Below the pieces are notes generated by a model that saw nothing but the letters and a program-made list of their open reading frames with translations, ran no database searches and was not told the DNA's origin. DNA of 47,061 bases from Chthonomonas calidirosea. GTDB lineage: Bacteria; Armatimonadota; Fimbriimonadia; Fimbriimonadales; Fimbriimonadaceae. The stretch spans positions 1-47,061 of the forward strand of contig CAMAPH010000022.1 of assembly GCA_945859975.1 (NCBI GenBank). Direction: 5' to 3'. The translations under genes were made by a program, and so were the position numbers. Below are positions 22,059 through 45,877 of the stretch, in pieces; within the stretch, counting starts at the first letter, position 1; the number at the start of each line of letters is the position of its first letter.

Positions 22059-22113
22059 CGAATTCCCAAAATCTACCGACGGAAATCCCGTTCGAAACCG
22101 TGAACAATTAAGC

Positions 22114-22380
22114 ATGACATTCATGGTCATCGAGAGATTCCGCCACGGCGACGCCGCCCCCGTTTATGCCCGGTTCCGAGAGCGCGGCCGCCTCGCTCCA
22201 GAAGGCGTAAAGTACAAATCGAGTTGGGTCGACGAGTCGTTCCAGGTCTGCTTCCAAGTCATGGAAGCCGAATCAAGATCGTTGCTCGACGAGTGGATCT
22301 CGAACTGGGATGACCTTGTCGATTTCGAAGTCTTCCCAGTTGTTGATTCCGCCACTGCCCAGGCGCGATTCTCGCCCTAG
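22114..22380 (+). CDS. DUF3303 family protein
   Basis: MVIERF...VYARFRERGR..PEG...SWV...CFQVME...WDDLVDFEVFPV. Confidence 0.75.
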   Translation: MTFMVIERFRHGDAAPVYARFRERGRLAPEGVKYKSSWVDESFQVCFQVMEAESRSLLDEWISNWDDLVDFEVFPVVDSATAQARFSP

Positions 22381-30287: not shown

Positions 30288-31370
30288 ATGCCGAACCTAG
30301 AATACAAACCAACGAGCGTCTCGCCACCCGGCGAGACGCTAAGTGACATCCTTGAAGAGCGCGGAATAACGCAAACGCAGCTGAGTGTCCGACTCGGTCG
30401 TTCTGGAAAGAACCTAAGCCAGATCGTGAACGGCAAAGCGCCCATCACTCCTGATCTTGCCGTGGATCTTGAGCGGGTGCTCGGCACTCCCGCTCGGTTC
30501 TGGCTGGCGAGAGAATCTCGGTATCAGGAATGGCTTTCTAGGTCGAGTATTCCCGAGCCAACCGACGCCGATTTAGAGTGGGCGAGAAGTTTCACGTATC
30601 CGAAGATGGCCGAATATGGATGGGTTCCGTCAACCTCAACAGCGCGGGAAAAGTTCTTCAACCTCCTAAATTTTTTTGGTGTGGTCCACCGACAAGCCTT
30701 TCAGGCCTGGGCCGGCAATCTCAGCCCCCAGTATCGGCGCTCAGAAACCGCGATCGACAAAGATCACCTCATCGCCGCTTGGCTTCGCCAGGGTGAACTA
30801 GAAGCTGAAGGCGTGGATGCGGGTGACTACAACGAAAAGGGGTTTGCTGCCGCCGTTGCCCACGCAAGAACCCTAACTTGCTCTCATCCAGAAGACTTTG
30901 TGCCCGAGATAAAGAAGGCGTTTGCCGCCAACGGAGTTGTGCTGTTGTTCGTTCCTGAGTTGCCTTCAATGGGCGTTTCTGGAGCCACACGATGGTTGAC
31001 GCCATCCAAGGCGCTGATCCAGATCACCCTGCGCTATAAGACTAACGATCATCTGTGGTTCACGATCTTCCATGAGTCGTGCCACATCCTCAAGCACCAA
31101 AAGCGGGTTGTCTATCTGGAGACGAATGGAGCGAAGAGTCCCGAAGAGATAGAAGCGGACGAATTCTCGGCCAACCACATGATTCCGCCTGGCCCATTAA
31201 ATAGATTTGAGGAGGCAGGTGTGTTTGATAAAGGATCGGTAGAGGCTTTTGCCGAATCCATTGGCATCTCACCAGGCATCGTGGTAGGAAGGCTCCAGAA
31301 AGAAGGACTGATTCCTTGGGACAGCCTCAATAGCCTCAAGGTCAAGTTCCAGTGGTCGAAGGACTCCTAA
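30288..31370 (+). CDS. higA: HigA-type HTH antitoxin fused to ImmA/IrrE metallopeptidase
   Basis: SPPGETL...ITQTQL...GKAPITPDLA..LE; WFTIFHESCHILKH (HExxH); EIEADEFS. Confidence 0.87.
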   Translation: MPNLEYKPTSVSPPGETLSDILEERGITQTQLSVRLGRSGKNLSQIVNGKAPITPDLAVDLERVLGTPARFWLARESRYQEWLSRSSIPEPTDADLEWARSFTYPKMAEYGWVPSTSTAREKFFNLLNFFGVVHRQAFQAWAGNLSPQYRRSETAIDKDHLIAAWLRQGELEAEGVDAGDYNEKGFAAAVAHARTLTCSHPEDFVPEIKKAFAANGVVLLFVPELPSMGVSGATRWLTPSKALIQITLRYKTNDHLWFTIFHESCHILKHQKRVVYLETNGAKSPEEIEADEFSANHMIPPGPLNRFEEAGVFDKGSVEAFAESIGISPGIVVGRLQKEGLIPWDSLNSLKVKFQWSKDS

Positions 31371-31379
31371 CTCTTAGCT

Positions 31380-32876
31380 ATGCTTAGCAAATCTGATTTC
31401 ACAACGGCACTGGATTGCCCCAAAAAACTCTGGCTCTCTCGTCACCTGCCTGAGCTGAAGGAAGCAATTGCACCCACCGCTCTGCGCCGAATGCGAATCG
31501 GAACCGAGGTTGGCTTGCTGGCGAAGCGCCGGTTTCCTTCTGGCGTCACGATTCCGGTCTGGGAATTGGGAAACGAGGCGGCTGCAGCGAAAACTGAAGA
31601 GTTGATGGCCACGGGACAGGACGTGCTCTTTGAAGCCACGTTTCTGCAGGACGATTTAGTGGCGAGAGTTGACGTGCTGAAGCGAGAGGAATCCGGTTGG
31701 CGAATTATCGAGGTCAAGGCGACGACCAAGTATAAAAAGCCAGGCCACCTCCTGGATGTCGCTTTTCAAGCATCGCTGTTTGCGCGTTGCGGTCATCCTC
31801 TATCAGGGGCATCCTTAATGCACATTGACACCAATTACGTCTGGGACGGCGGTGATTGGCATGTTGACAACCTCTTCAAGATTGAGGAGATCACGGACGA
31901 TGTGGCGAAGATCCTGCCCCAGATTCCCGATCAGGCAACTTCGTTTCTTAATTTGATCAACCAGGCCGAATATCCGCCATTCGATGGCGAAGCACCCTAC
32001 TACGACCCGGTCATTCATTCGTCGTGCAAGGGTTGCGAGTTCGCCAAGCATTGCACACCCCGCGTTCCCGCCGACCACATTCACTATCTCGGACTCCACC
32101 ATTCTCGGAGTAAGAAGCTCTTGGCCGATGGAATCCGAGCAATCGGCGGTGTTCCGAAGGACCTCAAATTGTCGGATACAGAGCGGCTGCGCTACCAGGC
32201 GTTCGTTACTGAGAAGCCAGCAGTTTCGGGCGATCTAGACTCTCGACTTGCAGAGATCCAATATCCTGCTCACTTGATCGACTTTGAAACCCTTAGGCCA
32301 GATCTGCCCCTCTTTGCTGGGCATTCTCCATTCCTGATGCTGCCATTTCAGTGGTCTTGCCACACCTTGAACGCGGCCCCGGATTGGTCCGTGACTGATC
32401 AGTCAATTGGACACACAGAGTTTCTCCACCAGCATCGAAGTGATCCGCGTGAGGCATTCATCCAGAGTTTGCTCGCTCAGATTTCGACCGGCGGAAGCAT
32501 CCTTCATTATCACGACTTCGAGAAGCAAGTGATCAATGAAATGGTCAAGGATCGAGTCCCCGGAGCAGATCAAGTTCAGGCAATGTTTGACCGCTTCATT
32601 GACCTTAGGAAGATCCTTGAGGATTGTTACGCCGACGCCAAGTTCCTTGGCAAAACATCCATCAAGAACGTCCTACCGGTAGTTGCTCCAACCTTAAGCT
32701 ATTCCGGTTTGAATATTCAGAATGGTGATCAGGCGCAAGTCGCCTACGCGAGCATGTTGGCCGGAGAGCTTGGCAATGACCAAGCCAAGCAGTTGTTTGC
32801 CGATCTACTTGAATATTGCAAGCTGGATACTTGGGCCATGGTGGAGATACTCAAGGCGCTATCGGCAGTTGCTTAA
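31380..32876 (+). CDS. DUF2779 protein: Cas4-like PD-(D/E)xK nuclease plus RNase H/DEDD-like domain
   Basis: LSKS..CPKKLWL, ARVDVL, IIEVKAT, DVAFQ, CKGCEFAKHC; IDFET, PFQWSCH, FEK, SIKNVLP, YCKLDT. Confidence 0.82.
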   Translation: MLSKSDFTTALDCPKKLWLSRHLPELKEAIAPTALRRMRIGTEVGLLAKRRFPSGVTIPVWELGNEAAAAKTEELMATGQDVLFEATFLQDDLVARVDVLKREESGWRIIEVKATTKYKKPGHLLDVAFQASLFARCGHPLSGASLMHIDTNYVWDGGDWHVDNLFKIEEITDDVAKILPQIPDQATSFLNLINQAEYPPFDGEAPYYDPVIHSSCKGCEFAKHCTPRVPADHIHYLGLHHSRSKKLLADGIRAIGGVPKDLKLSDTERLRYQAFVTEKPAVSGDLDSRLAEIQYPAHLIDFETLRPDLPLFAGHSPFLMLPFQWSCHTLNAAPDWSVTDQSIGHTEFLHQHRSDPREAFIQSLLAQISTGGSILHYHDFEKQVINEMVKDRVPGADQVQAMFDRFIDLRKILEDCYADAKFLGKTSIKNVLPVVAPTLSYSGLNIQNGDQAQVAYASMLAGELGNDQAKQLFADLLEYCKLDTWAMVEILKALSAVA

Positions 32877-33756: not shown

Positions 33757-36700
33757 ATGCGCGTCCTGGCTCTTTGGATCTCGCTTCTTTTCGCAACGGC
33801 AGTTGGCCAAGCCCAAAGCGGCGCCGAAGTCAGCGTCATGTACGGCCATTCCGACTCGGTCGAGTACATGGTGTTCTCCCCGAATAGCCGGTACCTGGCA
33901 ACGGGCTCGTCCGACGAATCCGTCATCGTGTGGGACACCCGGCTAGGCAGCGAGTTCCGCCGCTTCCGCCGCGTCGACGTTCTCCGAACCCTCTCAGACC
34001 TAAAGATCACCGATACAAAAGAGGCAAAGGAGAAAATGGCCCGCCTCGTGCTTGCCCTCCGCGGCGCCATGCCGCTGGGAATCTCCGCCGACGGCCGCAC
34101 CCTCGTCAGCGCTCACCGGGACCAGACGGTGAAGTTTTGGGACCTGACAAACGGTACCGACGTAGCAACCGAAGTCGCCGTCCCCCCCGCCCCGCGCACG
34201 GAAACCAAGATCAACAAGAGTCCAATCCCTGGGGTCAAAGTCGGAGCAGATAAGCCCGAGGAAGCCCTCTTCAACGACTTTCTGAAGGGGGCCGGCGGCC
34301 AGTTCCTAGGCGGACAGATACCGGTCATTGGCCGAATAAGAAACCTGCTCTACGGCGACGAAGGAACCGGCCAACGCCCGATCAATGAAGTCGTCCTCTT
34401 CGCCGCACCGCGCGACCTCAAGTTCGTCCTCGTCGGCGTACAGGACGGCGTCCGCTGCATCGACGTCGCAACTCGGCAACCGGTCGCAACCTACAAGCCG
34501 CGCGACAAGTACGGCGCCGCCGCCATTCGCCGCCTAGCCGTATCTCCCGACGGTCGGTACGGAGTTTGCACGCTGATCTCCGGCCGGGTCGAGGTTTTCG
34601 AACCGACAACCGGAAAGATCCTTGCGACCGAACGCGTCTGGAAAGAAGACGCCCCCATGCTCTCCATCAGCGAAGCCGGCGACTCCGCCGCCATGGTGAA
34701 CGAGAACGGTCGGCTTCAGGTCGTAGCGCTACCCAGCCTGGAGAAGAAGCTCCAAATCGACCCGCCAATGGGCTCTAGCGGCGCGCCAAGCGTCGTAATG
34801 TCGCCATCCGGTGACCGCGTTTACGTCGCCTACAAGCAAGTCCAAACCATCGATCCCTTCAACCCCCGCCCAATCACCTCGGCCAAACCCATCCTCGCAA
34901 ACGCCGTCACCGTCGCGTACTCGGTCGCCGAAGGAAAGGTTCTGTTCAAGGCGACCGGCATCGACGTAACCCGCGGTGTCTTCAGCAGCGATGGCCGCTA
35001 TTTGGCGCTCGGCGAATACGTCCTCGATACCCAAGTCGCTCCAGGTGAAACGCCACAAGCCCGCAGCCTCCGCCTAGGCATGCCCGATGGCGTTAAGTTC
35101 GTGGCAACCACCTCGCTCAACTCACCAAACGACGCCGCCTTCGCCCCCAGCGGACGGTTCATGGCACTCAAGGAGAGCAAGAACCGCACAAGCCTGCGAG
35201 ACGTGCAGACCGGACTCGGTGTTCTCACTCTCAGCGGCTTTGGCGATCCGATCCAGCGCATCCGCGCCACCGGCTCCCGCCTCCTGGTGGCCGGAGGAGC
35301 GGATCCAAACTCCTTCAACCGCCTCCTCGCCCCGTCACTTGCTGCGGCCACAGATATCGAACCAGACCTTCTTTCAAACCTCTACCGGCTGGAAGAACTC
35401 TTCAACAAAAAGAAGCCGGAAGTCCGAGTCTGGGATGAAGCGACAATTCCCGTCTTCGATCCGCCACTTTTGACCTTGGGTTACGGCGAACAAGCCGAAC
35501 GGCTCCTCGATGAAAAAGGCGTGCCGCCGACTTCGATCCGCTTGCTCGATCCAGCCACGTGGCGACAAGGCGTGGCAATCCAATCACAAGCCGGCGGCTT
35601 CGGCCGCTCGGAGATCGTCGAGCGAGAGCAACGTATCGTCGCGAGTTCCGCGGTCGGCCTCGGCGGCACAATCGCTTGGGACGCGCAGACCGGAAGCGTC
35701 GCCGCTGGTGCGTATCCGGCCAACGAAACCGTGCTTGCAGTCGACGTCTCGGGAAGCCGAGTCCTCGTGCAACGAACTGAGAACATCCGTGGAAAGCCCC
35801 AACGTCGTGGAGTCCTGAAGATCGACGGAAAGGACGCCTTCGTTGTGATGAAGCAGCCGCAAGAGATCGACAACTTCCGGTTTCATTTCAGCGCCGACGG
35901 CTCGACGCTGATGTTGGTAGATCCACGAAGAATCCGCCGCTTCAATGTCAGCACCCTGAAGTTCGTACCGGACGTTCGAGTTTCAGTACTGCAAGTCACC
36001 GAAGACGGTGCCTACGCCGTGCTTCGAAACCGCGGTGCCGCGACCCTCTACGACCTGGCCGCCGGAAAGGACGTGTGCAACGTGAAGGAAGTTCCCCTCC
36101 TCATTCAGTCCCTCGCGGTGAGCCCAGAAACCGGCAGATTCGCCCTCGGCCATTCATTCAACAAATTAACCGTGCACGACATGGCCACCGGCGAGCGCCG
36201 GAACACCATCGAAAGCCACGAGGATATGGTCACCGGGATCGCCTTTTTGGATGCCGGTAAGCGATTGGTGAGCGCGTCATACGACTGCACAATGCGCATG
36301 TGGGATGACGCCGGAAAGGAAGTCGTCCGCTTCGTCCCGCTCGGTGAGTCGGACTTTGTGGTGGTCACTCCGGACAACCGCTACATGTCGTCGCGCGGAG
36401 CTGATACCGGCTTAGCGTTCCGGCTCGAAGGTGGAACGTATCCGTTTGAGCAGTTCGACTTGGCGCTGAACCGGCCCGATCTCGTGCTCCCGCGTATCGG
36501 AACACCCGATCCTAAGCTTGTGCAACTCTACGAAGCGGCATACCGCAGAAGAGTCCTCCGCGACGGCCTTGAGGCAGCCACTTCAGACTTAACCAAGCGC
36601 CCAACTCTTGAGGTTCCGAAGCGAGACGAGATCGCCGGGGTTGCGACCCAGCCGACGCTCTTACTCCGAGTTCAGGCAAGTGCCCCCACGGGACGCACGC

Positions 36701-37704
36701 TGAAGCGGTTCGACGTTTGGGTGAACGATGTCCCCGTCCCGCAGGTCTACGGGCCCCCGCGGCCCCTTGGCGCAAAGTGGGAAGGCAACCTGGACCCAAT
36801 CCGCCTGAGCGCTGGCCGCAATAAGGTGCAGGTGGTAGCTGTTGACAGCGCAGGCGTACGCTCGCTCTTCGAGACCTTGTACGTTCGACGCGATGCCCAA
36901 GTCCGCCGGGTCCTGCACATTCTTACCGTCGGCGTATCGGACTATCAGACCGGTAGCGATCTCAAGTATGCCGACGACGACGCCAAGGCCCTCGCCGTTC
37001 CAGAGCTGTATGCCGGGGCGTTCGACGAAGTCAAAGTCACCGCCGTACTCACCGACGCCAATGCAACTCGCGCCAACATCGTCGCCGCCGTGAAGAAGCT
37101 AGAGACAACATCGCCCGAAGACGCGATCCTCATTGCGTTCGCCGGCCACGGTCTCATCGATCCGAAAGACAAGCAGTTCTACTTCGCCACCTACGACACC
37201 GACTTTGCCAATCCACGAGAGAAGGGCATCGCATACGAAACCCTGCCAGAGCTCCTCCGAGCCGTGCCCTCGAGGCAGCGTCTCATCATGTTCGACGCCT
37301 GCTTCTCCGGGGAGCCCGACGGCACGGAAGAAGCGCAGCGCGTTCCGCTTGCCGATGGCATCGTACGTTCGGGGACCCGAGTCGCCGGAACCTATAAAGT
37401 GAGCCAAGCGGTCCAGGTCATGCAGACTCTGTTTTCAAACCTGAACCGCGGCGTCGGCGCCCACATCATTGCGGCGGCCGGTGGAAATGAGTTCGCGGTC
37501 GAAAAGGACGGCCACGGCATCTTCACCTCCGCGGTGCTAGAGGCACTTCGCGACCCAAGCATCGCTGGCGGCAACGTTAAAGATGGCCTCGCCGTCACGC
37601 GCCTCCGCGAGTTCGTCCTTCGCCGCGTTCAAGCGCTGTCCGGCGGCCGTCAGTCGCCAATCTCACGCGCTGAGAACCTAGCACTGGACTTTCGAATCCG
37701 TTAA
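33757..37704 (+). CDS. Secreted WD40-repeat protein with C-terminal caspase (peptidase C14) domain
   Basis: Signal peptide; GHSDSV..FSPNSRYLATGSSD.SVIVWD WD40 repeats; FAGHG and FDACFSG catalytic dyad. Confidence 0.9.
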   Translation: MRVLALWISLLFATAVGQAQSGAEVSVMYGHSDSVEYMVFSPNSRYLATGSSDESVIVWDTRLGSEFRRFRRVDVLRTLSDLKITDTKEAKEKMARLVLALRGAMPLGISADGRTLVSAHRDQTVKFWDLTNGTDVATEVAVPPAPRTETKINKSPIPGVKVGADKPEEALFNDFLKGAGGQFLGGQIPVIGRIRNLLYGDEGTGQRPINEVVLFAAPRDLKFVLVGVQDGVRCIDVATRQPVATYKPRDKYGAAAIRRLAVSPDGRYGVCTLISGRVEVFEPTTGKILATERVWKEDAPMLSISEAGDSAAMVNENGRLQVVALPSLEKKLQIDPPMGSSGAPSVVMSPSGDRVYVAYKQVQTIDPFNPRPITSAKPILANAVTVAYSVAEGKVLFKATGIDVTRGVFSSDGRYLALGEYVLDTQVAPGETPQARSLRLGMPDGVKFVATTSLNSPNDAAFAPSGRFMALKESKNRTSLRDVQTGLGVLTLSGFGDPIQRIRATGSRLLVAGGADPNSFNRLLAPSLAAATDIEPDLLSNLYRLEELFNKKKPEVRVWDEATIPVFDPPLLTLGYGEQAERLLDEKGVPPTSIRLLDPATWRQGVAIQSQAGGFGRSEIVEREQRIVASSAVGLGGTIAWDAQTGSVAAGAYPANETVLAVDVSGSRVLVQRTENIRGKPQRRGVLKIDGKDAFVVMKQPQEIDNFRFHFSADGSTLMLVDPRRIRRFNVSTLKFVPDVRVSVLQVTEDGAYAVLRNRGAATLYDLAAGKDVCNVKEVPLLIQSLAVSPETGRFALGHSFNKLTVHDMATGERRNTIESHEDMVTGIAFLDAGKRLVSASYDCTMRMWDDAGKEVVRFVPLGESDFVVVTPDNRYMSSRGADTGLAFRLEGGTYPFEQFDLALNRPDLVLPRIGTPDPKLVQLYEAAYRRRVLRDGLEAATSDLTKRPTLEVPKRDEIAGVATQPTLLLRVQASAPTGRTLKRFDVWVNDVPVPQVYGPPRPLGAKWEGNLDPIRLSAGRNKVQVVAVDSAGVRSLFETLYVRRDAQVRRVLHILTVGVSDYQTGSDLKYADDDAKALAVPELYAGAFDEVKVTAVLTDANATRANIVAAVKKLETTSPEDAILIAFAGHGLIDPKDKQFYFATYDTDFANPREKGIAYETLPELLRAVPSRQRLIMFDACFSGEPDGTEEAQRVPLADGIVRSGTRVAGTYKVSQAVQVMQTLFSNLNRGVGAHIIAAAGGNEFAVEKDGHGIFTSAVLEALRDPSIAGGNVKDGLAVTRLREFVLRRVQALSGGRQSPISRAENLALDFRIR

Positions 37705-40700
37705 CGCGAATTCCCCGTGAGCACAAACGGCGCCCAATAGTAGGGGTGAGCGTAGCGGGGAAGTCCGGTGGGCCATTTGGGAGCAGCGGAAGCTGCTCTC
37801 TTTGCCTTGGTGTCCGACCGTCTAACTCCCGCGGGAACACTGACGATTTGGCGACCGCTCAAAAACTCCAGCTGAACGCTTCGAAGGGCGGCCAGTGGAG
37901 AAGTCTTCGGGTTGGCCGCGAGCTTTGCGTACATTCGGCGCATCAGCTCGGCCGTCGGTTGGTCCGCCACTGGCCAAAGGCTCGCTGCGACCGCTCCGAC
38001 CCCTTTGCGCAGCAGTCGCTCTGCCATCCCTTCGGCGGCATAGCCGTCCGAGTCCTCGGCTCCCGGCGCCGTCTCGCAAGCGGAAAGCACGACCAGCCGA
38101 AGAGATGCGAACAGCGAGTTGGGCAGCGATTCCAGCTCCTGCAGCGACATCTTAGTGCCGTCGCCAAGGAGCAACTGCGAGTTCTCCGGCGGTCCTGGCC
38201 GCAGAGAAAAGTGGCTAGCAAGGTGCAAGACTGTCGGCTTCGCCCGCAGACCCGCTTCCAGCGCCTTGCGGGTGAATTCGCCGTTGCGCAGAGGCTTCCC
38301 GGGGAAAGCGGCGGCGATGGCACTGAGTTCGGCATCGACTCCCGGCAGCGCCGTGTAGCCCGGAGCGGCCTTCGAAGCACCGCAAGCCAGTACGCGGTAA
38401 CCGGTTCGCTTATCGTCCGGTCGCAGCGCGTCCGACCCCGGGAAGTAGGCGTGTACTCGGCGCGCGACGAGGAACTTCTCACCGTCCCAAAGCGCACCCA
38501 CCGGGATCAAACGCAGAGCGCCATCGAGCGACCAGAGCACGGTCTTGACTCCCTCCGCCTTAAGATGCGCCTCGATAGGCGCAGCAAGGACTTTATAGAT
38601 CGCCAACCCAGAAGGTCGCGGGTCACGTGTCGGATCTTCCAACACCTGTCGGAAAGTCGTAACGCGCTTGCCGAGGTCCTTAACCGAGGTCTTAAAGGAG
38701 CGCAGGCTGCCATTGGTGGCAACTAGGAGGTGGAGATCGTTCTCTCGGTAGAGAGCATAAACGGCCGCCGTTCCTTTGGGCGTGGCCCGCTTGATGCGCT
38801 CGAAGGCGGGGGTGGATTCCAACTTGCCGCCGCCCTTTTTGGAATCTTCCATCACGCGGCGAATGGTGGCGGAATAGGCGGTGCGGAGCTTTTCCAGTTC
38901 CGGCTCCAGCGCCTTGGCTCCGGCTGTATCCTTGCGCAAGCGTAGCGCCTGCTCGCGGGCACCCACTTCAGAAAGCGTCCTGCCCGCGGCCTCGATCTGG
39001 GCGTCCCACTTTGCCTCCACCGGAGTAAGGGGCATCGCGCCGCTCCATGCCGCGCGGTCAGCTTCAGTGCGCTCCTGAGCCTTCAGCAGGTCCATCGCAT
39101 GAAGAGCTTCCGCCTCCCGGCTTTGATCCAGGAGCAACGGAGCCAAGAAGCGGAACACAGCTTCGTTTTTGCGCGACAGCCGTCCCCGCAATTCGCCATC
39201 CAACCCACGCGCACCAAGTCGCACGCTCTGCGAAGCATTTGCCGATTGCTTCGCGAAGTAAGTGGCGACCAAGGGATGTTTGGCCACCATGAGTGAGGCA
39301 ATTCCGCCTAAAACTTGTGCCACGCCAGATCGACTCTTAGCGGCTACCAAAATCGGCAGAGCATGCTCGTAGCGCTCAAGCGCCTTCGCTGGTTGGCCGG
39401 TCTCGCGGAAAAGCGTACCGATCTTGACATGCCCAGTTGCCACTTCGCCTTGAATCTCTAATGTTTCCGCCAAAGCTACAGATTTCTCGAAACAGTTGAG
39501 CGCTTTCGCATAATCACCGAGGGACTGGTAGACGCTGCCAATCTGGCTAAGGCTGGTGGCTTCAATTGACCGATTTCGGATTTCGAGTGAGATGGAGAGC
39601 GCCAGGTTGTGGTGTTCCAAAGCTTTCGCTGACTCGCCGGACCTGCCGTAGAGCAAACCAATGTTGTTAAGAGTGGTTGCCTCTCTGACGCGATCCTTTA
39701 TTTCACGAAAGATTCGTAGTGCTTGCTCGAAATACTGCAGCGCTCGGATGCTTTGCCCGAGACTGTCATACGTGCTCCCGATACCAGCTAAAGTTTGGGC
39801 CTCTCCACCGAGGTCTTGAACTTCTTTCCGGATCTTTAGTGCTCTGTCAAAATACTTAAGCGCCTTTGATGGCTCACCAAACCCAGAGTAAACTATTGCG
39901 ATATTGCTAAGCGTTACGGCATAAGTGCGTTTATCGCCGATTTCGTCCAGAACAGTTAACAAGCGCTCCAAACTATCGAGAGCCCTACCTGTTTGTCCGA
40001 TCGAGTTGTTTACGGCGGCAATGTTGTTGAGAGTCGACGCCGCTCCTCGAAGGTCTCCAATCTCTTTCAGGATCGGAAGTGCCAGCTCGTAGAATTCTAG
40101 CGCTTTTGCCGATCGGCCGAGGTCTGTAAAGACGAAACCCGTATTATTAAGGGTTGCCGCCTCTTGACGCCGATCCTTTACCCTCCTCGAGATTGCGAGG
40201 GCATTCTCGTAAAATTCCAAGGCCTTCGCCGGCTGGCCGATGCTCTGATACACCGCGCCAAGATTATGCAAGGTTGCTCCCTCTCCAGCAAGATCTCCCA
40301 CTTCCCTTCGCAAATTTAACGACTTAACCAGGTATCCTATCGCAGTTGCAGAATCACCGCGATCGGAGTACACGACTCCGATAGACGTTAACACGATAGC
40401 TTCACCGAATCGGTCACCTACAGCCCGTTGGAGTGGGAGTGCACGGTTGTAGTAGCTTATTGCTTTGTCGGGTTGGCCAAGATTTCGCGCTAGAACACCG
40501 AGATTCGCGAGCGTTACCGCCTGCCCGCGTTCATTTTTGAGCGTTTCCTGGATGTGTAGTGCTTGCTCATAGTACTCCCTCGCGTTCGCAGGCTGGCCGA
40601 TACTTGAGCAGACATTGCCGATGTTGCTTAAGGTCGTTGCTTCAGTTACTTGATCACCGACTTCCCTTAGAATGGGCAGCGCAAGCTCGTAGTAGTACCT

Positions 40701-41096
40701 AGCCTTAGCCGGTTGGCCAATGCGGTCGTAGACGAGGCCGATGTTGTTCAGGGTCACCGCCTCACCACCCCGGTCCCCCGCGTACTTTCGGATGGGTAGA
40801 GCCCGCTCATAGTATTCCAGCGCCTTCGCCGGCTGTCCAAGATCAAAGTTGCAACGCCCGATCCAGTTGAGTGCTAGGCCTTCCCCGACCCGGTCGCCGC
40901 GCTCCTGAGCGACCTTCAAAGCCTGCTCAAAGACAGGCAACCGTTGCGCCCACGTCTTGTCGCCAGCCGCACCCTCGTCCAACAGCCTCTGCACCTCCGG
41001 CGTCGGCTTAGGCGCGGGCTTTACCGTCTGCGCCGCAACCTGCGCAGAAAATATCGCCAGCCCGAGGAGCACAATGGCCGTCAGATGCAATCTCAT
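37701..41096 (-). CDS. Secreted TPR-repeat CHAT-domain protease
   Basis: Signal peptide; 13 tandem 40-aa TPRs; DGALRLIP, LHLASHF, VLSACET, ASLWPVAD, HPYYWAPFVLTGN. Confidence 0.92.
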   Translation of the reverse strand: MRLHLTAIVLLGLAIFSAQVAAQTVKPAPKPTPEVQRLLDEGAAGDKTWAQRLPVFEQALKVAQERGDRVGEGLALNWIGRCNFDLGQPAKALEYYERALPIRKYAGDRGGEAVTLNNIGLVYDRIGQPAKARYYYELALPILREVGDQVTEATTLSNIGNVCSSIGQPANAREYYEQALHIQETLKNERGQAVTLANLGVLARNLGQPDKAISYYNRALPLQRAVGDRFGEAIVLTSIGVVYSDRGDSATAIGYLVKSLNLRREVGDLAGEGATLHNLGAVYQSIGQPAKALEFYENALAISRRVKDRRQEAATLNNTGFVFTDLGRSAKALEFYELALPILKEIGDLRGAASTLNNIAAVNNSIGQTGRALDSLERLLTVLDEIGDKRTYAVTLSNIAIVYSGFGEPSKALKYFDRALKIRKEVQDLGGEAQTLAGIGSTYDSLGQSIRALQYFEQALRIFREIKDRVREATTLNNIGLLYGRSGESAKALEHHNLALSISLEIRNRSIEATSLSQIGSVYQSLGDYAKALNCFEKSVALAETLEIQGEVATGHVKIGTLFRETGQPAKALERYEHALPILVAAKSRSGVAQVLGGIASLMVAKHPLVATYFAKQSANASQSVRLGARGLDGELRGRLSRKNEAVFRFLAPLLLDQSREAEALHAMDLLKAQERTEADRAAWSGAMPLTPVEAKWDAQIEAAGRTLSEVGAREQALRLRKDTAGAKALEPELEKLRTAYSATIRRVMEDSKKGGGKLESTPAFERIKRATPKGTAAVYALYRENDLHLLVATNGSLRSFKTSVKDLGKRVTTFRQVLEDPTRDPRPSGLAIYKVLAAPIEAHLKAEGVKTVLWSLDGALRLIPVGALWDGEKFLVARRVHAYFPGSDALRPDDKRTGYRVLACGASKAAPGYTALPGVDAELSAIAAAFPGKPLRNGEFTRKALEAGLRAKPTVLHLASHFSLRPGPPENSQLLLGDGTKMSLQELESLPNSLFASLRLVVLSACETAPGAEDSDGYAAEGMAERLLRKGVGAVAASLWPVADQPTAELMRRMYAKLAANPKTSPLAALRSVQLEFLSGRQIVSVPAGVRRSDTKAKRAASAAPKWPTGLPRYAHPYYWAPFVLTGNSR
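39336..40895 (-). repeat. 13 x 120-bp (40-aa) TPR coding repeats
   Basis: Consensus D+xGEAxTLxNIGxVYxxxGQPAKALEYYExALxIxxExx at an exact 40-aa period. Confidence 0.9.
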
Positions 41097-41184
41097 AGTC
41101 CTAGTATAAGCCTAACCCGGTCAAACCACCAACAGAAAACTAAATCTGCAACCGACTCATAGCCATCGACGTACCATTGCAAAG

Positions 41185-43230
41185 ATGACGCTCCTTGCTG
41201 CCGTTGCCATGCTCGCGATCCAGGCCCCGCCGACCTTTCGGGTGCTCGTTGTCGGCATGGGACCCTACTCCGCCACTGGTTCTGCCTTCCCGAACTTAAA
41301 CGGCGAAAACGACGCCCGGAACCTGGCGGCGCGGCTTAAGAGTGCCTACAACCTAAAGGACGAAAACTTCCACTTCGTCCTTGGCAAGGAAGCGACAAAG
41401 GCCAAGATCGAGGGCGAATTCCGAGACTGGCTCGTCAAGGACGCGAAACCCGGCGACACCCTTGTCTACTTCGTTAGCGGCCACGGAACGCTCGTGCCCG
41501 ATCCGAGCTACGCCACCGGGGTGCGCGGCGCGACCGTACCGATCGACTTCCGGGTGCGCACCGATGGCTCAATTGATGAGACCAGCGTCATCACCAGCCG
41601 CTTTTATAACGAACAAATCACCAGCCTGTCGAAGAGCGGCGTCGAGAACGTGACCCTAATTTTCGACACCTGCCACGCTGGTTCGGTAGCGCGAGGCAAA
41701 GGCGAGGTCGTCGCGAAATGGATCGAAAACCCGGGCGCGAAGGCTCGTCCCGTGCCCGCGACCCGCAGCGCGTACATTGGCTACGAATTCGGAGGCAGCG
41801 TCGTCATCGCCGCCGCTCGGTCAGATCGCTCGGCCTACGAAAATCGCCCGGAAGGCGGAAACCTCACCGTCGCCCTTTGCCGTGCCCTTCGCCGCCAACA
41901 GGAGCGGCAAGCGGCTGGTTCATCCGCCTTTTCGTATCGACAACTGTTCGCCGCCATGCGCGCCGAAATGGAAACCCTCGACCAGCCCATCCCGCAAGAA
42001 CCAATCCTCGCCGGTCCCGCCTCGGACCGCGAAGTGTTTGGGCGAAAGATGGAAGCCATCGAGCCTTACTTCACCATGCTTCCCAAGGGGAGCGGTTGGA
42101 AAATTGATGGCGGACGTGCCGTGGGCATCGAGACGAACCACGTCATTGGGATTTACCCAATCGGAACCCGGAAGTTCAGCGGAGTGAAACCGATCGCAAC
42201 TGCCGTCGTCACCAAGTCGGATGCATTCGAAAGCGAAGTCAAACTGCGAGAAGCTGTCGCACCTTCGGCCCTGAGCGGAGCTCCGGCCCAGATCATCGAT
42301 GGCCTTCCCGATGCCTTCTTACGCCTCGATCTTTCGCGCGTCACCGAGCCGATCTCGGAGCTTGCCAAGCTGCCTCTGGTGCGCCGGGATGACGCCGCAG
42401 CTGACGTCGTGATCGTCCCGTCTGGAGCCAAAAAGTCCACCCCCGACGATTACGATTCGTCACCGGGAAGCTGGCGACTCTTCGATGCTGGCAAGAGTGA
42501 ACCGTTCGCGGAGGTCGCCGGCAACGATCCTCGCCGAGTCGAGTCGCTCCTTGACCTGATTCGCGACGCCGCTCGCCATCGCTCGCTACAGCGCCTTGAG
42601 ACCCCGTCTCCATACGTCAAAGTCGAAGCCGAGATGGTCCCCGTCCGGTTCAAGGAAGCTAAAGAGGGCGAAGTAACCGAAGCCATTTTGCCGCCACGTC
42701 CTATGGAGTCGCTATCAGCGGCTGACCGATTTGCCATTCGGGTACGCGCCGTTCCCGCCAACGGAATCCCGATGCGGAATCCTGAACTTGCACTGCAAGA
42801 GGCTCCATACATCGCCGTTCTCAACCTTTTACCGCGAAAAACGGTCAAGTCCCTTTGGCCAGATGATCGGTTTGGCCTGAATCCGGAAGGCCGCCGGCTC
42901 CCGCCCGATGGCGAATGGCGCTATTTAGGGGAAGAAGGTCTCGTTCGGTCCAGCCGTATTTCAGAGATCCTTCCCTGGGGTCAAAATCCAGACGAGGGCC
43001 CGGGTCGTGAAACGTTTAAAATTATTGCCACCCGCACTAACATATCTTTAGCGCCGTTTCTCACGAGCGCACGGAGTGGCTCCAAAAGTGGAACGCGTGG
43101 GGACAGCCGACTCGCCGACCTTCTTGATTCGTTCAAGGAGGGTCTGCCAATCGAACGGACCGGAACAAAGGCCGGAGCGCCGTCCGAGTTCGGCGTCGTG
43201 TCGATCACCGTTAACATCCCAGATCGATAA
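41185..43230 (+). CDS. Secreted caspase family (peptidase C14) protein with C-terminal accessory (DUF4384-like) domain
   Basis: Signal peptide; LVVGM, ATKAKI, VSGHGT, FDTCHAG, AAARSDRSAYE, QEP; C-terminal GRETFKIIAT. Confidence 0.88.
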   Translation: MTLLAAVAMLAIQAPPTFRVLVVGMGPYSATGSAFPNLNGENDARNLAARLKSAYNLKDENFHFVLGKEATKAKIEGEFRDWLVKDAKPGDTLVYFVSGHGTLVPDPSYATGVRGATVPIDFRVRTDGSIDETSVITSRFYNEQITSLSKSGVENVTLIFDTCHAGSVARGKGEVVAKWIENPGAKARPVPATRSAYIGYEFGGSVVIAAARSDRSAYENRPEGGNLTVALCRALRRQQERQAAGSSAFSYRQLFAAMRAEMETLDQPIPQEPILAGPASDREVFGRKMEAIEPYFTMLPKGSGWKIDGGRAVGIETNHVIGIYPIGTRKFSGVKPIATAVVTKSDAFESEVKLREAVAPSALSGAPAQIIDGLPDAFLRLDLSRVTEPISELAKLPLVRRDDAAADVVIVPSGAKKSTPDDYDSSPGSWRLFDAGKSEPFAEVAGNDPRRVESLLDLIRDAARHRSLQRLETPSPYVKVEAEMVPVRFKEAKEGEVTEAILPPRPMESLSAADRFAIRVRAVPANGIPMRNPELALQEAPYIAVLNLLPRKTVKSLWPDDRFGLNPEGRRLPPDGEWRYLGEEGLVRSSRISEILPWGQNPDEGPGRETFKIIATRTNISLAPFLTSARSGSKSGTRGDSRLADLLDSFKEGLPIERTGTKAGAPSEFGVVSITVNIPDR

Positions 43231-43265
43231 AGCGACTGTAGAATAGCTGGACCCCGGAGAAATAG

Positions 43266-45107
43266 ATGCCCATGCACGACGTAGAATCCCCGCCCGTGAA
43301 ATCTCCGGGCGAACGCACCTACATCGCGTTTGTTCGGATGCTCCCAGGGTCGACAGCGGGAGGCAAATCCAAAGAGCCGTGGCGGCAAATCGAGAGTTGT
43401 CCCAGAACAAGCCATCCGCTACCGCGTCCACAAATCGACGACCTCGGCTATCACTACGTGCTTGGTCCCGACGGCAAGGCAGCGATTGACTCCGCCAATG
43501 CACTGGCCCAAGCGCTCTTCGCCGAGGGACACGATCAGTACATAGTCCTTGACCATGTGGACGTGAGCGAATTGGCCGAGTTGCCCGAGCCGGCCGTACT
43601 GAGTGTCAAGGCTGGTGAATTGTGCCTAAGCGAGGCTGCAGCGGCGGCATTGCAGGCCAATAAAGTCTGGACACCAAAGAACAAGTCTGACTTGCGACTG
43701 TACGATTGGGAAAAAGAACTGGGCTTCAGCTGGCAGATGGCAAAGAAAATCCTTCTACGGACGCAGGAACCCGCGCATGAATTGGCAGGAATTCCAACAG
43801 TTTCCCGGCGGATTTGTCATATTTTGCAAGATATTGTTTTTGGAATTATCATTGCAGCAATTGCGGCTTATCTCATCGAGCCGCTTATCGAGCAAACGCC
43901 GGTGGGTCGCTGGGGAGATCAGATCGCTTACGAGCAAATGGTCGGTGCCCTGAGCCCCGCGTCAAACAAGTCTCCTGTTGTCGTGGTCGATATTGGCGAG
44001 CAATTAAATTATAAAAACGAGATCTATACCGATCTCGAAAAATTGGACAAAGTGGTCGGTAAGGTTTTGGAGCAGAAGCCTCTCGCGGTAGCGGTGGACT
44101 TTGACTTCGGGCCGAACGACGATGATATTCGTCGGCGCACCAATGGGTATCGCATCGATGCCAGCTCGATACTTGGGCGATCCATTGATTCAACGAAAAC
44201 GGCCTCGCCAGTCTTCTTGGGCACTACCTTGCCCGATCCCGGTGCCGAGGAGCTCCTCGGAAGTCAGGAGGCGATCCCTATGGCCGTTCATCTCCTTCGG
44301 CCCCCGGGGTTCATCATGGGCCAAACCGAAATGCTCGGGTCGCTTCACCGTGGTGAAACGGTTCTGCCGAGCCTGGCCGAAAAACTGGCAGAGGTTTACC
44401 GAGAACGGCGTACTCCGTCTCCGAGCAGTCCGCTTTTCAGCTTCTTTTTTGAGCGCTCCGAGACGCATCGTCCGTTTACCGAAATCGTGAAGGGCCTTCC
44501 GCAAGAAATGGCCGAAGTACTGAACGGCATTGAGGCAGACACGTATCTGCTGAATTACGCCAATGTCGACGACTTGATGAAAAATCGAGTCACGGTGTTG
44601 CCCAGCGGCGAGCTCAAGAATCCAGAGAACGCACGCCGTCTGCTGGAAGATAAACTCGTCGTTCTGGGCTCGACTACCACCGAAGGGGACCTCATGCGCC
44701 AACCTCTGGTGTACCGTCCCGTGCCCGGCGTCATTCTCCACGCGCTGGCCGTCGACACCCTTTTGCGGAGTCCAATTTATGATTTCACTGAGATCGGGAA
44801 CAAGGTTTCCGGCTTCATAAGTGGTTGCCTCGTGCTCTTCCTAGTTTCGGCCGTCCGGTGGCGCTTCATGACCGGTCGTGGGGAAGAGATTGAACAGCGC
44901 GCGGCAGGGTTTGCCACTCTGCTCTCCCTGTTCTCGATTCTTGCTCTAGCGTGGGGGCTCGCTCGGGCATACGGCGTGTTATGGACTGGCGCTTTCGTGT
45001 CCCTCTTCGTGGTGCTCGTCGTGGAGCCCCGCATCGAACATGGCCTGCACCACACTCCTAAACTTTTCTCTGATTTGAAACGAATATTCCGAGGCGCACG
45101 AAAATGA
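43266..45107 (+). CDS. CHASE2-domain membrane protein without C-terminal output domain
   Basis: TM, then VVVVDIGE, PLAVAVDFDF, DKLVVLG, PGVILHALAV..LL, then 3 TMs and a short tail. Confidence 0.82.
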   Translation: MPMHDVESPPVKSPGERTYIAFVRMLPGSTAGGKSKEPWRQIESCPRTSHPLPRPQIDDLGYHYVLGPDGKAAIDSANALAQALFAEGHDQYIVLDHVDVSELAELPEPAVLSVKAGELCLSEAAAAALQANKVWTPKNKSDLRLYDWEKELGFSWQMAKKILLRTQEPAHELAGIPTVSRRICHILQDIVFGIIIAAIAAYLIEPLIEQTPVGRWGDQIAYEQMVGALSPASNKSPVVVVDIGEQLNYKNEIYTDLEKLDKVVGKVLEQKPLAVAVDFDFGPNDDDIRRRTNGYRIDASSILGRSIDSTKTASPVFLGTTLPDPGAEELLGSQEAIPMAVHLLRPPGFIMGQTEMLGSLHRGETVLPSLAEKLAEVYRERRTPSPSSPLFSFFFERSETHRPFTEIVKGLPQEMAEVLNGIEADTYLLNYANVDDLMKNRVTVLPSGELKNPENARRLLEDKLVVLGSTTTEGDLMRQPLVYRPVPGVILHALAVDTLLRSPIYDFTEIGNKVSGFISGCLVLFLVSAVRWRFMTGRGEEIEQRAAGFATLLSLFSILALAWGLARAYGVLWTGAFVSLFVVLVVEPRIEHGLHHTPKLFSDLKRIFRGARK

Positions 45108-45877
45108 AATTCATTGCTTTGTTTAGCTTGCTTGTGATCGGAGGAAGCGCAACCCAAAAAACGCCGGGACGCCTTTCCGCCGGAGTGTTGATCGTTTCTA
45201 AAGGCGTCGCCCTGTTGAAGGACCCCGAGGCTGGCAAGCCGCTTCGGCTGCCGGCTGGGAGCACCGCGGGCGTTCGCACCGGCGATATTGTGAAACTCCT
45301 GCAAGGGACGGCCTTCATTTTGCACCGGGATGAATCTCGGGAGCCATTGCCAATTGGGAGCGAAGTGCCCGTTCGGCGGCGGCTGACCGAGCGGGATCGC
45401 AAGCTTGCGCAGCTCCGACCGATCCTCGATAAGGCAGCCCGAGACAAGGGCGCCCCGTATCCTAACGCGTCGTCGCTTGTTCCCGCATCACTCCTGACCG
45501 TTCGCCTCCCAGAAGCGCTCCCCGGCGGGCGGGTCCGCGTTGTCTTGCGCAATTCCCGAGACGAGGTCGTGGCCGAGTTCACTGCGCAGTCGAAACGCCT
45601 GATCGTGCTGCCGGAGTTGCGGCGCGCGGCCATGGTCTTGCGAGATGCTGGAGACGAGTTCGCTTCGGTCGAATTCGTGTCCGGAGCAGTTCGCCGGAAG
45701 GCCTCATTCCGGCTCCTGCCTCGCGCCGACGAGCAGCGGCTCTGGTCGTATCTTCTGTTCCCACCACAGGAATCGGACCCAGAGCTTGCCGCGCTGGAGC
45801 GCCGCGTGGGACTGGTGCAGTTCCAGCTCAACGGCAAACGTCCATTCGTTGATCTCGCCACCGCACTGGCTCCATAG
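45104..45877 (+). CDS. Secreted hypothetical protein, translationally coupled to the CHASE2 gene
   Basis: ATGA overlap; signal peptide MKFIALFSLLVIGGSA; 257 aa. Confidence 0.75.
   Translation: MKFIALFSLLVIGGSATQKTPGRLSAGVLIVSKGVALLKDPEAGKPLRLPAGSTAGVRTGDIVKLLQGTAFILHRDESREPLPIGSEVPVRRRLTERDRKLAQLRPILDKAARDKGAPYPNASSLVPASLLTVRLPEALPGGRVRVVLRNSRDEVVAEFTAQSKRLIVLPELRRAAMVLRDAGDEFASVEFVSGAVRRKASFRLLPRADEQRLWSYLLFPPQESDPELAALERRVGLVQFQLNGKRPFVDLATALAP

Follow-up and report, generated by a model that had tools for sequence, protein, structure and literature searches.

Ever since the CHASE2 domain was defined, the input that it detects has been called unknown, according to the accessible text of the source (PMC5192318). 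In the parts of the literature available to us, the systems closest to the one reported here tie CHASE2 either to caspase-clan proteases or to secreted proteins. The former are fusions, namely the metacaspase-CHASE2 protein of Trichodesmium erythraeum and the EACC2-caspase-CHASE2 proteins of Kaur et al. 2021 (PMC2853523, PMC3501461, PMC8195603), and the latter are gene neighbourhoods, namely LysM/FecR proteins with a CHASE2 kinase in the Burkholderia 'BiofilmReg' system, FecR and tetratricopeptide repeat (TPR) proteins with a CHASE2 cyclase in Campylobacterota, and MtxA with a CHASE2 cyclase in magnetotactic bacteria (PMC5192318, PMC9239204, PMC4439547). In addition, a Nostoc cluster is reported to hold two WD40 proteins, CHASE2 and DUF928 (PMC5587647), and genomic island 15 of Psychroflexus torquis to hold putatively secreted metacaspase genes and a CHASE2 family protein (PMC3914696). 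Here we analyzed a 47,061-nucleotide stretch of Chthonomonas calidirosea DNA (the window), which comes from contig C22 of a 3.12-Mb assembly in 101 contigs (95.8% complete). Five of its genes, at positions 33757-45877, encode three caspase-clan proteases (P0001, P0002 and P0003), a CHASE2 membrane protein (P0004) and a predicted secreted partner (P0005). Our results indicate that the five form a single envelope module, which belongs to a widespread and unnamed cassette. The core of this cassette consists of a CHASE2 four-helix protein, a downstream secreted partner and at least one repeat-bearing caspase-clan protease that is predicted to be exported.

Like the cluster, the caspase-CHASE2 fusions tie a caspase-clan protease to a CHASE2 ectodomain with one plus three transmembrane (TM) helices. 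In the available descriptions, however, the caspase forms the N-terminal part of the CHASE2 polypeptide and is predicted to be cytoplasmic, whereas the proteases of the cluster are encoded by separate genes and have export-type N-termini. The FecR/MtxA-type systems share with the cluster a secreted beta-sandwich protein beside a CHASE2 protein, often with a TPR protein nearby, but their receptors carry kinase or cyclase outputs as described, while no output is recognised in P0004. Moreover, P0005 matches neither the FecR nor the MtxA families by Pfam, and the accessible text describes the TPR partner of these systems without naming a protease domain. Island 15 of P. torquis, which we liken to the cluster by its description only, also has several signal-peptide metacaspases beside a CHASE2 protein. 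It differs in its transposase flanks, its LytTR regulator and the suggestion of programmed cell death, and the description, as far as available, contains no partner family, CHAT gene or mechanism. CHAT-CHASE2 neighbourhoods in cyanobacteria, which the earlier note on this DNA had taken as established, were not found in print; the caspase-CHASE2 fusions and the Nostoc WD40/CHASE2/DUF928 cluster were found instead. Indeed, no paper on CHASE2 with a CHAT domain was found in print by a search that had subscription papers and supplements outside its scope. The bacterial CHASE2/caspase papers that were found contain passing mentions, and none treats the trio as a system in the text accessible to us.

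Two further TPR-CHAT proteins invite comparison with P0002. In DdvA of Myxococcus xanthus, too, this architecture is extracytoplasmic, and proteolysis is proposed as the step that starts signalling. According to the available text (PMC11506125), however, DdvA is an anti-sigma factor that spans the membrane; its His-Cys site is incomplete, and it has a zinc domain in the cytoplasm as well as an ECF sigma factor as its partner. P0002 runs from a signal peptide directly into TPRs, has a complete dyad and is not of the DdvA type, and the scan of 18 ORFs (open reading frames) of the window found no sigma-factor family. Csx29 of the type III-E Craspase has the TPR-CHAT architecture in common with P0002, but is cytoplasmic and bound to Cas7-11. 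P0002 was rejected as a Csx29 protein: it scores 14.7 bits against the NF041237 cut-off of 300, it starts with a signal peptide, and no cas gene was found in the cluster or elsewhere among the ORFs scanned.

All five ORFs of the cluster were confirmed, as were the domains, His/Cys dyads, overlaps and divergent spacer that the earlier note had read from the sequence. P0001 (33757-37704, forward strand, 1315 aa) consists of a signal peptide, a WD40 beta-propeller region and a C-terminal Peptidase_C14 domain. It converges on P0002 (37701-41096, reverse strand, 1131 aa), and both stops use the TTAA at 37701-37704. P0002 consists of a signal peptide, a TPR array (approximately residues 50-600, 39297-40949), a helical linker and a CHAT domain (residues 828-1129, 37710-38615). 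Its start is separated from the divergent start of P0003 by an 88-bp spacer (41097-41184), in which a consensus promoter scan found nothing, with promoter and terminator scan counts at chance level. P0003 (41185-43230, forward strand, 681 aa) has a short hydrophobic N-terminus, a Peptidase_C14 domain and about 400 further residues. After a gap of 35 bp follows P0004 (43266-45107, forward strand, 613 aa), which comprises an N-terminal extension of 185 residues (43266-43820), a TM helix, CHASE2 (residues 213-503, 43902-44774) and three C-terminal TM helices. P0005 (45104-45877, forward strand, 257 aa) overlaps P0004 by the ATGA at 45104-45107, which indicates translational coupling. Scans of the whole 3.12-Mb assembly returned two Peptidase_C14 matches, two CHAT matches and one CHASE2 match; the protease counts are lower bounds because the scans overlooked the caspase domain of P0001. 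The 12-kb cluster thus holds three of at least five caspase-clan genes of the genome together with its sole CHASE2 match, a grouping beyond chance. The other Peptidase_C14 and CHAT matches of the genome lie on other contigs (G000:C40:869-1321 and G000:C50:12137-12844).

By sequence comparison, this core trio is found again in several bacterial phyla. We tallied 38 CHASE2 loci outside this genome and its close kin (G014), comprising 15 loci from Armatimonadota (13 from a phylum scan plus G006 and G007) and 23 from a pattern scan. A caspase or CHAT gene is adjacent in 28 of the 38, and a P0005-type partner directly follows CHASE2 in 28 of the 38. By our own arithmetic, from about five such genes per 3.1 Mb, roughly 3% of random 20-kb stretches would be expected to hold a caspase-clan gene. 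The claim of the earlier note that these genes belong together is therefore borne out by the neighbourhood search, which found conserved co-occurrence of CHASE2, a downstream partner and at least one protease in distant genomes.

A P0004 query matched 4 of 61 relatives, our genome included, and within Armatimonadota a CHASE2 profile matched 14 of the 401 genomes of the phylum, from which 13 new loci were annotated with their flanks. A caspase or CHAT gene stands one or two genes from CHASE2 in 13 of the 15 Armatimonadota loci, and the two protease-less ones lie on contigs of 5.6 and 6.6 kb. G007 and G006, two genomes from the same genus as ours, encode output-less CHASE2 proteins with 28-29% identity to P0004. 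In G007, a CHASE2-only gene is followed by a secreted 313-aa protein whose gene overlaps it by 4 bp and then by a signal-peptide WD40-caspase; in G006, a signal-peptide caspase-TPR gene is convergent with genes for a secreted 304-aa protein and a CHASE2-only protein. Neither secreted protein of about 300 aa has a Pfam family. The loci of G229 and G428 are richer: the former encodes, all on one strand, a TPR-CHAT protein, a P0003-like 710-aa caspase, CHASE2 and a 244-aa partner, and the latter two P0003-like caspases, CHASE2, a partner and a P0001-like WD40-caspase.

The pattern scan covered 185,579 species genomes, one per species, with three CHASE2-only queries, and returned 26 loci, three of which were the queries. 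The 23 new loci comprise 18 from Acidobacteriota, one planctomycete, one from Verrucomicrobiales, one from Gammaproteobacteria and two more from Armatimonadota; for several of the 18, the assignment to this phylum is a presumed one. A caspase or CHAT gene is adjacent in 15 of these 23 and a partner is present in 18, half of the partners (9 of 18) lying outside the training set of the hidden Markov model (HMM) and scoring E 1e-54 to 7e-9. At one acidobacterial locus (L045:1464-21382), a single CHASE2 and partner pair is surrounded by a subtilase (Peptidase_S8) and five ORFs with caspase domains, and one of these caspases has Pro instead of the catalytic Cys. Most CHASE2 proteins of the subfamily have no cytoplasmic domain, as exemplified by P0018 and P0019, whose first TM helix is preceded by about 25 residues. 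Others carry cytoplasmic outputs. A C-terminal cyclase is found with the same neighbours at L038, L039 and L040, and an N-terminal cyclase at L059. An N-terminal Ser/Thr kinase is found at L053 (with CHAT), L065 (with partner and caspase) and L051 (with neither), these three kinase-CHASE2 fusions coming from Verrucomicrobiales and Acidobacteriota records.

P0005 itself belongs to no Pfam family. FecR (PF04773) was unmatched in it at E up to 10 and had zero matches across the whole genome. A full HMMER search with P0005 returned four hits among 1.84 billion representatives, with P0013 (40% identity over residues 9-157) as the single usable distant relative, and word-indexed homologue searches returned close kin only. 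BLASTP links among the CHASE2-adjacent partners nevertheless form one network, which reaches P0005 via P0013. Correspondingly, hhalign aligned the P0005 family with nine CHASE2-adjacent partners over 128 columns (probability 93.9%, E 1.6e-7); BLASTP of P0005 against P0016 found nothing, so that profiles are needed for the link. The AF2 model of P0005 has two beta-sandwich domains and a mean pLDDT of 59.6, with 69-90 in the N-terminal sandwich block. Foldseek found no match to this model in the PDB at E <= 0.001. VIA-align returned matches of the common beta-sandwich kind for the low-confidence model, the best with Z 7.8 to a small beta-sandwich (5ix9). A score of 0.85 for similarity of P0005 to the DUF7354/MtxA_IG-like cluster by Atlas features is at the level of a hint, and the partner at L038 matches DUF7354 weakly (E 0.077). 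A profile of the partner family searched against the PDB recovered weak TPR-like hits to the C-terminal end only, and not MtxA; the longer members of the family finish in a TPR-like helical hairpin. In a 743-aa protein at L059, the partner domain (residues 25-318, probability 96.9%, E 1.6e-10) is fused to a Peptidase_C14 domain (residues 350-554), which argues that partner and protease act together. This fusion gene follows the gene of P0022, a CHASE2 protein with an N-terminal class III cyclase, in a Terriglobia record (L059:9065-13220).

All three proteases of the cluster have intact catalytic motifs. P0001 has Pfam matches to WD40 propellers and to Peptidase_C14 (residues 1056-1308, 33.1 bits against a cut-off of 21.4), P0002 to many TPR families and to CHAT (residues 828-1129, 185.8 bits, cut-off 24), and P0003 to Peptidase_C14 (residues 20-266, 65.4 bits, cut-off 21.4). 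HMM alignments place His and Cys in the catalytic columns of P0001 (AGHG / DACFSG), P0002 (ASHF / SACET) and P0003, in which SGHG and DTCHAG are matched by the corresponding motifs in an alignment with the yeast metacaspase 4f6o. Neither P0001 (74 bits) nor P0003 (32.9 bits) is assigned to the EACC1-associated caspase family (NCBIfam NF047832), as both score below its cut-off of 140. Each of the two has a counterpart at a related locus: residues 709-1314 of P0001 are 33% identical (E 2e-74) to the CHASE2-adjacent WD40-caspase of G428, and residues 17-647 of P0003 align (E 4e-15) with residues 30-678 of the 710-aa caspase directly before CHASE2 in G229. His100 and Cys163 are invariant in all nine members of the P0003-like family. 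Residues from about 290 to 681 of P0003 match no Pfam family. Near the C-terminus, three of the nine members match DUF4384 (best E 5.9e-5), and P0003, though aligning in that region, has no DUF4384 score itself; its C-terminal end is probably DUF4384-like. DUF4384 is a companion of cyanobacterial orthocaspases in the accessible text of PMC7475262. Across the related loci, His and Cys are kept in 24 of the 25 caspases and in all 11 CHATs that neighbour CHASE2, the exceptions being one protein with Pro for Cys and the degenerate second domain of a two-domain protein. From these motifs, the neighbour proteases look catalytically active.

A hydropathy heuristic served to judge export signals throughout. 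The N-termini of P0001, P0002 and P0005 have a basic residue, 14-15 uncharged residues and then small residues, and look like textbook signal peptides. That of P0003 has 12 uncharged residues with no preceding Lys or Arg, directly followed by Pro-Pro and then by the first caspase strand. The signal-like peptide claimed for each protease is hence clear in P0001 and P0002 and atypical in P0003. Among 19 caspase and CHAT proteins neighbouring CHASE2 in this and related genomes, 16 have a strong hydrophobic stretch within the first 70 residues, which points to export as a trait conserved among them; two of the 19 have no such stretch over that length when read from the start of the longest ORF, which may be over-called. 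As in P0003, the caspase fold begins right behind the hydrophobic stretch in several of these proteins. The two P0003-like caspases of G428 (L029:4163-8943) have a twin-arginine-like SRRxF/L before the hydrophobic stretch, which hints at Tat (twin-arginine) export of folded caspases. The CHASE2-neighbour proteases are thus probably extracytoplasmic, as the earlier note had supposed for those of the cluster, with P0003 as an uncertain case.

In P0004, CHASE2 matches Pfam over residues 213-503 with 49 bits (cut-off 26.3). The protein can be aligned with 17 relatives. Its hydrophobic segments, one at about 182-210 and three between 512 and 590, fit the usual TM-CHASE2-3TM layout, and one segment before and three after CHASE2 predict that both termini are cytoplasmic and CHASE2 outside. 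The AF2 model has a pLDDT of about 65-90 in the CHASE2/TM part and below 50 in residues 1-177, and Foldseek found no PDB match to it at E <= 0.001. For residues 1-185, neither a Pfam match (E up to 10) nor a similar PDB chain was found. The extension is unlike those of the CHASE2 proteins in G428, L048, G229, L047 and L045, and no relative of it is detectable outside the genus. On these comparisons, it is lineage-specific and placed where the N-terminal outputs of relatives sit. Three assignments were tried for P0004 and rejected. One was a degenerate cyclase domain at the N-terminus, suggested by Guanylate_cyc in 21 of 30 Atlas feature hits (score 0.91) and by the relative P0022 with its N-terminal cyclase; BLASTP gave E 0.034 over 70 residues, and hhalign against four cyclase domains gave a probability of 0.66%. 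Another was a caspase-CHASE2 fusion of the EACC2-caspase-CHASE2 type, as residues 1-185 contain no caspase. The third took P0003 and P0004 to be the two halves of a split caspase-CHASE2 fusion, with the caspase in the cytoplasm; it was abandoned because P0003-like relatives have clear signal or Tat-like N-termini. Modelling of a complex between the CHASE2 ectodomain of P0004 and mature P0005 ended twice with a score of 0.00 and no answer, and weighs neither way.

Comparison with close kin revealed which parts of the module change fastest. G014, from the same genus, has the entire block with the same flanks; identity is 98.5% for P0001, 93-96% for P0003, 90% for P0004 and 98% for P0005, and 94-99% for the genes flanking the block. 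A metagenome scan with the P0005 family returned a single contig (L011), a syntenic close relative with 83-94% identity. Both are vertical kin and therefore say little on function. The TPR array of P0002, however, is 16-46% identical per 50-residue window to that of its G014 orthologue, whereas identity is 90% in the window that covers the signal peptide and 92-100% across the CHAT half. The orthologue is shorter by 120 residues, the array of P0002 being three repeats longer, and repeat homogenisation was absent from the TPR and WD40 DNA as analyzed with TRF. This divergence points to cassette replacement or diversifying selection, and a hypervariable TPR array would fit a ligand-binding surface. 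In P0004, the N-terminal part is 54-86% identical to that of G014 and the CHASE2/TM part 88-100%, the N-terminal extension being the fastest-evolving part of the protein.

Taken together, the cluster has a TM-CHASE2-3TM protein, a downstream partner and an adjacent intact-dyad protease with an export-type N-terminus by the hydropathy heuristic, and it is a multi-protease, output-less variant of the cassette with a hypervariable TPR sensor. The reading that we favour, tentatively and with slightly less than even confidence, is a protease-gated envelope receptor. The TPR and WD40 arrays would bind an extracytoplasmic protein cue, and binding would activate or position the His/Cys protease, which may then cut the partner or the CHASE2 ectodomain. 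The cut would lift inhibition of the membrane module, which in relatives would drive a fused nucleotide cyclase or Ser/Thr kinase; in P0004, the seat of the output would have to be the four-helix bundle, the 185-residue cytoplasmic extension or an unlinked protein. The periplasmic partner and protease stay constant while the cytoplasmic end of CHASE2 varies (none, cyclase or kinase), which argues for the periplasmic proteins as receptor input and makes signalling from protease to CHASE2 plausible on comparative grounds. A CyaD1 construct without CHASE2 gave constitutive cyclic AMP (cAMP) in S. meliloti according to the available text (PMC5498481), which fits an inhibitory ectodomain, and the authors of the DdvA study propose, in the part accessible to us, autoproteolysis of this periplasmic TPR-CHAT protein before intramembrane proteolysis (PMC11506125). 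The earlier note had let a cleavage product signal through CHASE2; the direction is retained here as plausible, but P0004 has no recognisable output domain to receive it. Its further proposal, that the proteases activate one another, found no support: most related loci hold a single protease, so that a cascade is not a core property.

Several points weigh against the protease-gated receptor. The export calls come from hydropathy alone; export of P0003 is predicted but uncertain, its N-terminus being signal-like and atypical. Outside CHASE2, P0004 has no Pfam or NCBIfam match and no recognisable output domain. A CHASE2-first order, in which the sensor controls the protease, is possible for output-less forms. 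Furthermore, 10 of the 38 related loci have no caspase or CHAT gene. Four of these are on short contigs (L034 and L036) or on cut ones that end at or in CHASE2 (L046 and L063), while the acidobacterial loci L052, L054, L056 and L058, which are kin of one type, have CHASE2 and partner only, indicating that the protease is not obligatory. As to the counts themselves, 18 of the 28 partner calls are on HMM training sequences, the 10 independent ones scoring E 1e-92 to 7e-9, and the related loci are partly kin, so that the counts overstate independence.

The same facts can be read differently. The arrays might recognise phage, bacteriocin or predator proteins in the periplasm, upon which the proteases would fire, in extracytoplasmic surveillance or abortive infection with the output-less CHASE2 protein as effector, acting perhaps by perturbing the membrane or arresting growth. 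Such a role would suit a distribution that is patchy both among relatives (4 of 61) and across the phylum (14 of 401 genomes) and a TPR array of 16-46% identity amid flanking genes of 94-99%, which resembles immune sensors. It would also suit the genes directly upstream, with a PD-Lambda-2_B match (E 2.4e-27) and a DUF2779 protein with a weak Cas4-like match, the matches of the caspase domains to the generic 'caspase' model of PADLOC, and the report, in the text available, that the periplasmic TPR-CHAT protein DdvA governs a defence island (PMC11506125). However, PADLOC-DB 2.0 models match neither P0004 nor P0005, and the protease hits are to generic 'caspase' and 'TPR' models at the domain level. 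Many relatives have ordinary cyclase or kinase outputs and lie among housekeeping genes, no effector domain is recognisable, and the flanks of the cluster are the same in three related lineages and hence give no visible sign of mobility. We therefore consider surveillance unlikely. Its more specific form, a periplasmic counterpart of cytoplasmic caspase/CHAT immunity in which the proteases cut the CHASE2-bound partner and the CHASE2 protein arrests or kills the cell, appears less likely still.

The order of events might also be reversed, with CHASE2 and the partner sensing an envelope cue and recruiting or activating the proteases, no signal entering the cytoplasm and the output being remodelling of periplasmic or surface proteins (maturation, shedding or sortase-like processing). 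The lack of a cytoplasmic domain in most CHASE2 proteins of the subfamily (P0018, P0019) speaks for this order, as do the partner-caspase fusion at L059 and the accessory domains of the proteases (DUF4384-like, PEGA, TPR and WD40), binding modules typical of cell-surface proteins. On the other hand, the cyclase and kinase forms keep the same neighbours, which is simpler if the periplasmic parts feed a receptor, and the cluster encodes no substrate candidates; we regard this reversal as rather doubtful. That the proteases are independent secreted enzymes of nutrition or housekeeping, lying beside CHASE2 with no functional link, seems highly improbable to us. Direct interaction evidence is lacking, P0001 lies beyond a convergent gene pair and 10 of 38 related loci have no protease, all of which an absence of linkage would accommodate. 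But an adjacent caspase-clan gene in 28 of 38 loci across phyla, against about 3% per random 20 kb, is hard to reconcile with it, as are the partner-caspase fusion and the translational coupling.

The conserved link of CHASE2 to exported, apparently active proteases and a secreted partner suggests a testable idea, namely that the input of CHASE2 is a proteolytic event rather than a small molecule. If true, bacterial caspase homologues, mostly discussed as cytoplasmic enzymes of death and immunity, would become components of envelope signalling. The present cluster is a rich example: its proteases have three different architectures, its output-less receptor bears a unique extension on the cytoplasmic side, and its TPR sensor is diverged. 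The cyclase-bearing relatives would offer an easy experimental read-out. We rate the interest of the locus as moderate to high because a long-open question, the input of CHASE2, becomes testable.

Directly upstream of the cluster lies a co-directional gene pair (window 30288-32876), both genes being 99% conserved in G014. The first encodes a 360-aa protein with HTH_3 and Peptidase_M78, whose PADLOC PD-Lambda-2_B match (E 2.4e-27) spans residues 15-339, and the second a 498-aa DUF2779 protein, the Cas4-like match of which has E 2.7e-5; the pair is possibly a defence system. Farther upstream, a 927-aa DUF5695 protein (window 19347-22130, 1226 bits) is encoded near ArsR, AHSA1 and GH30-like genes and appears unrelated to the cluster.

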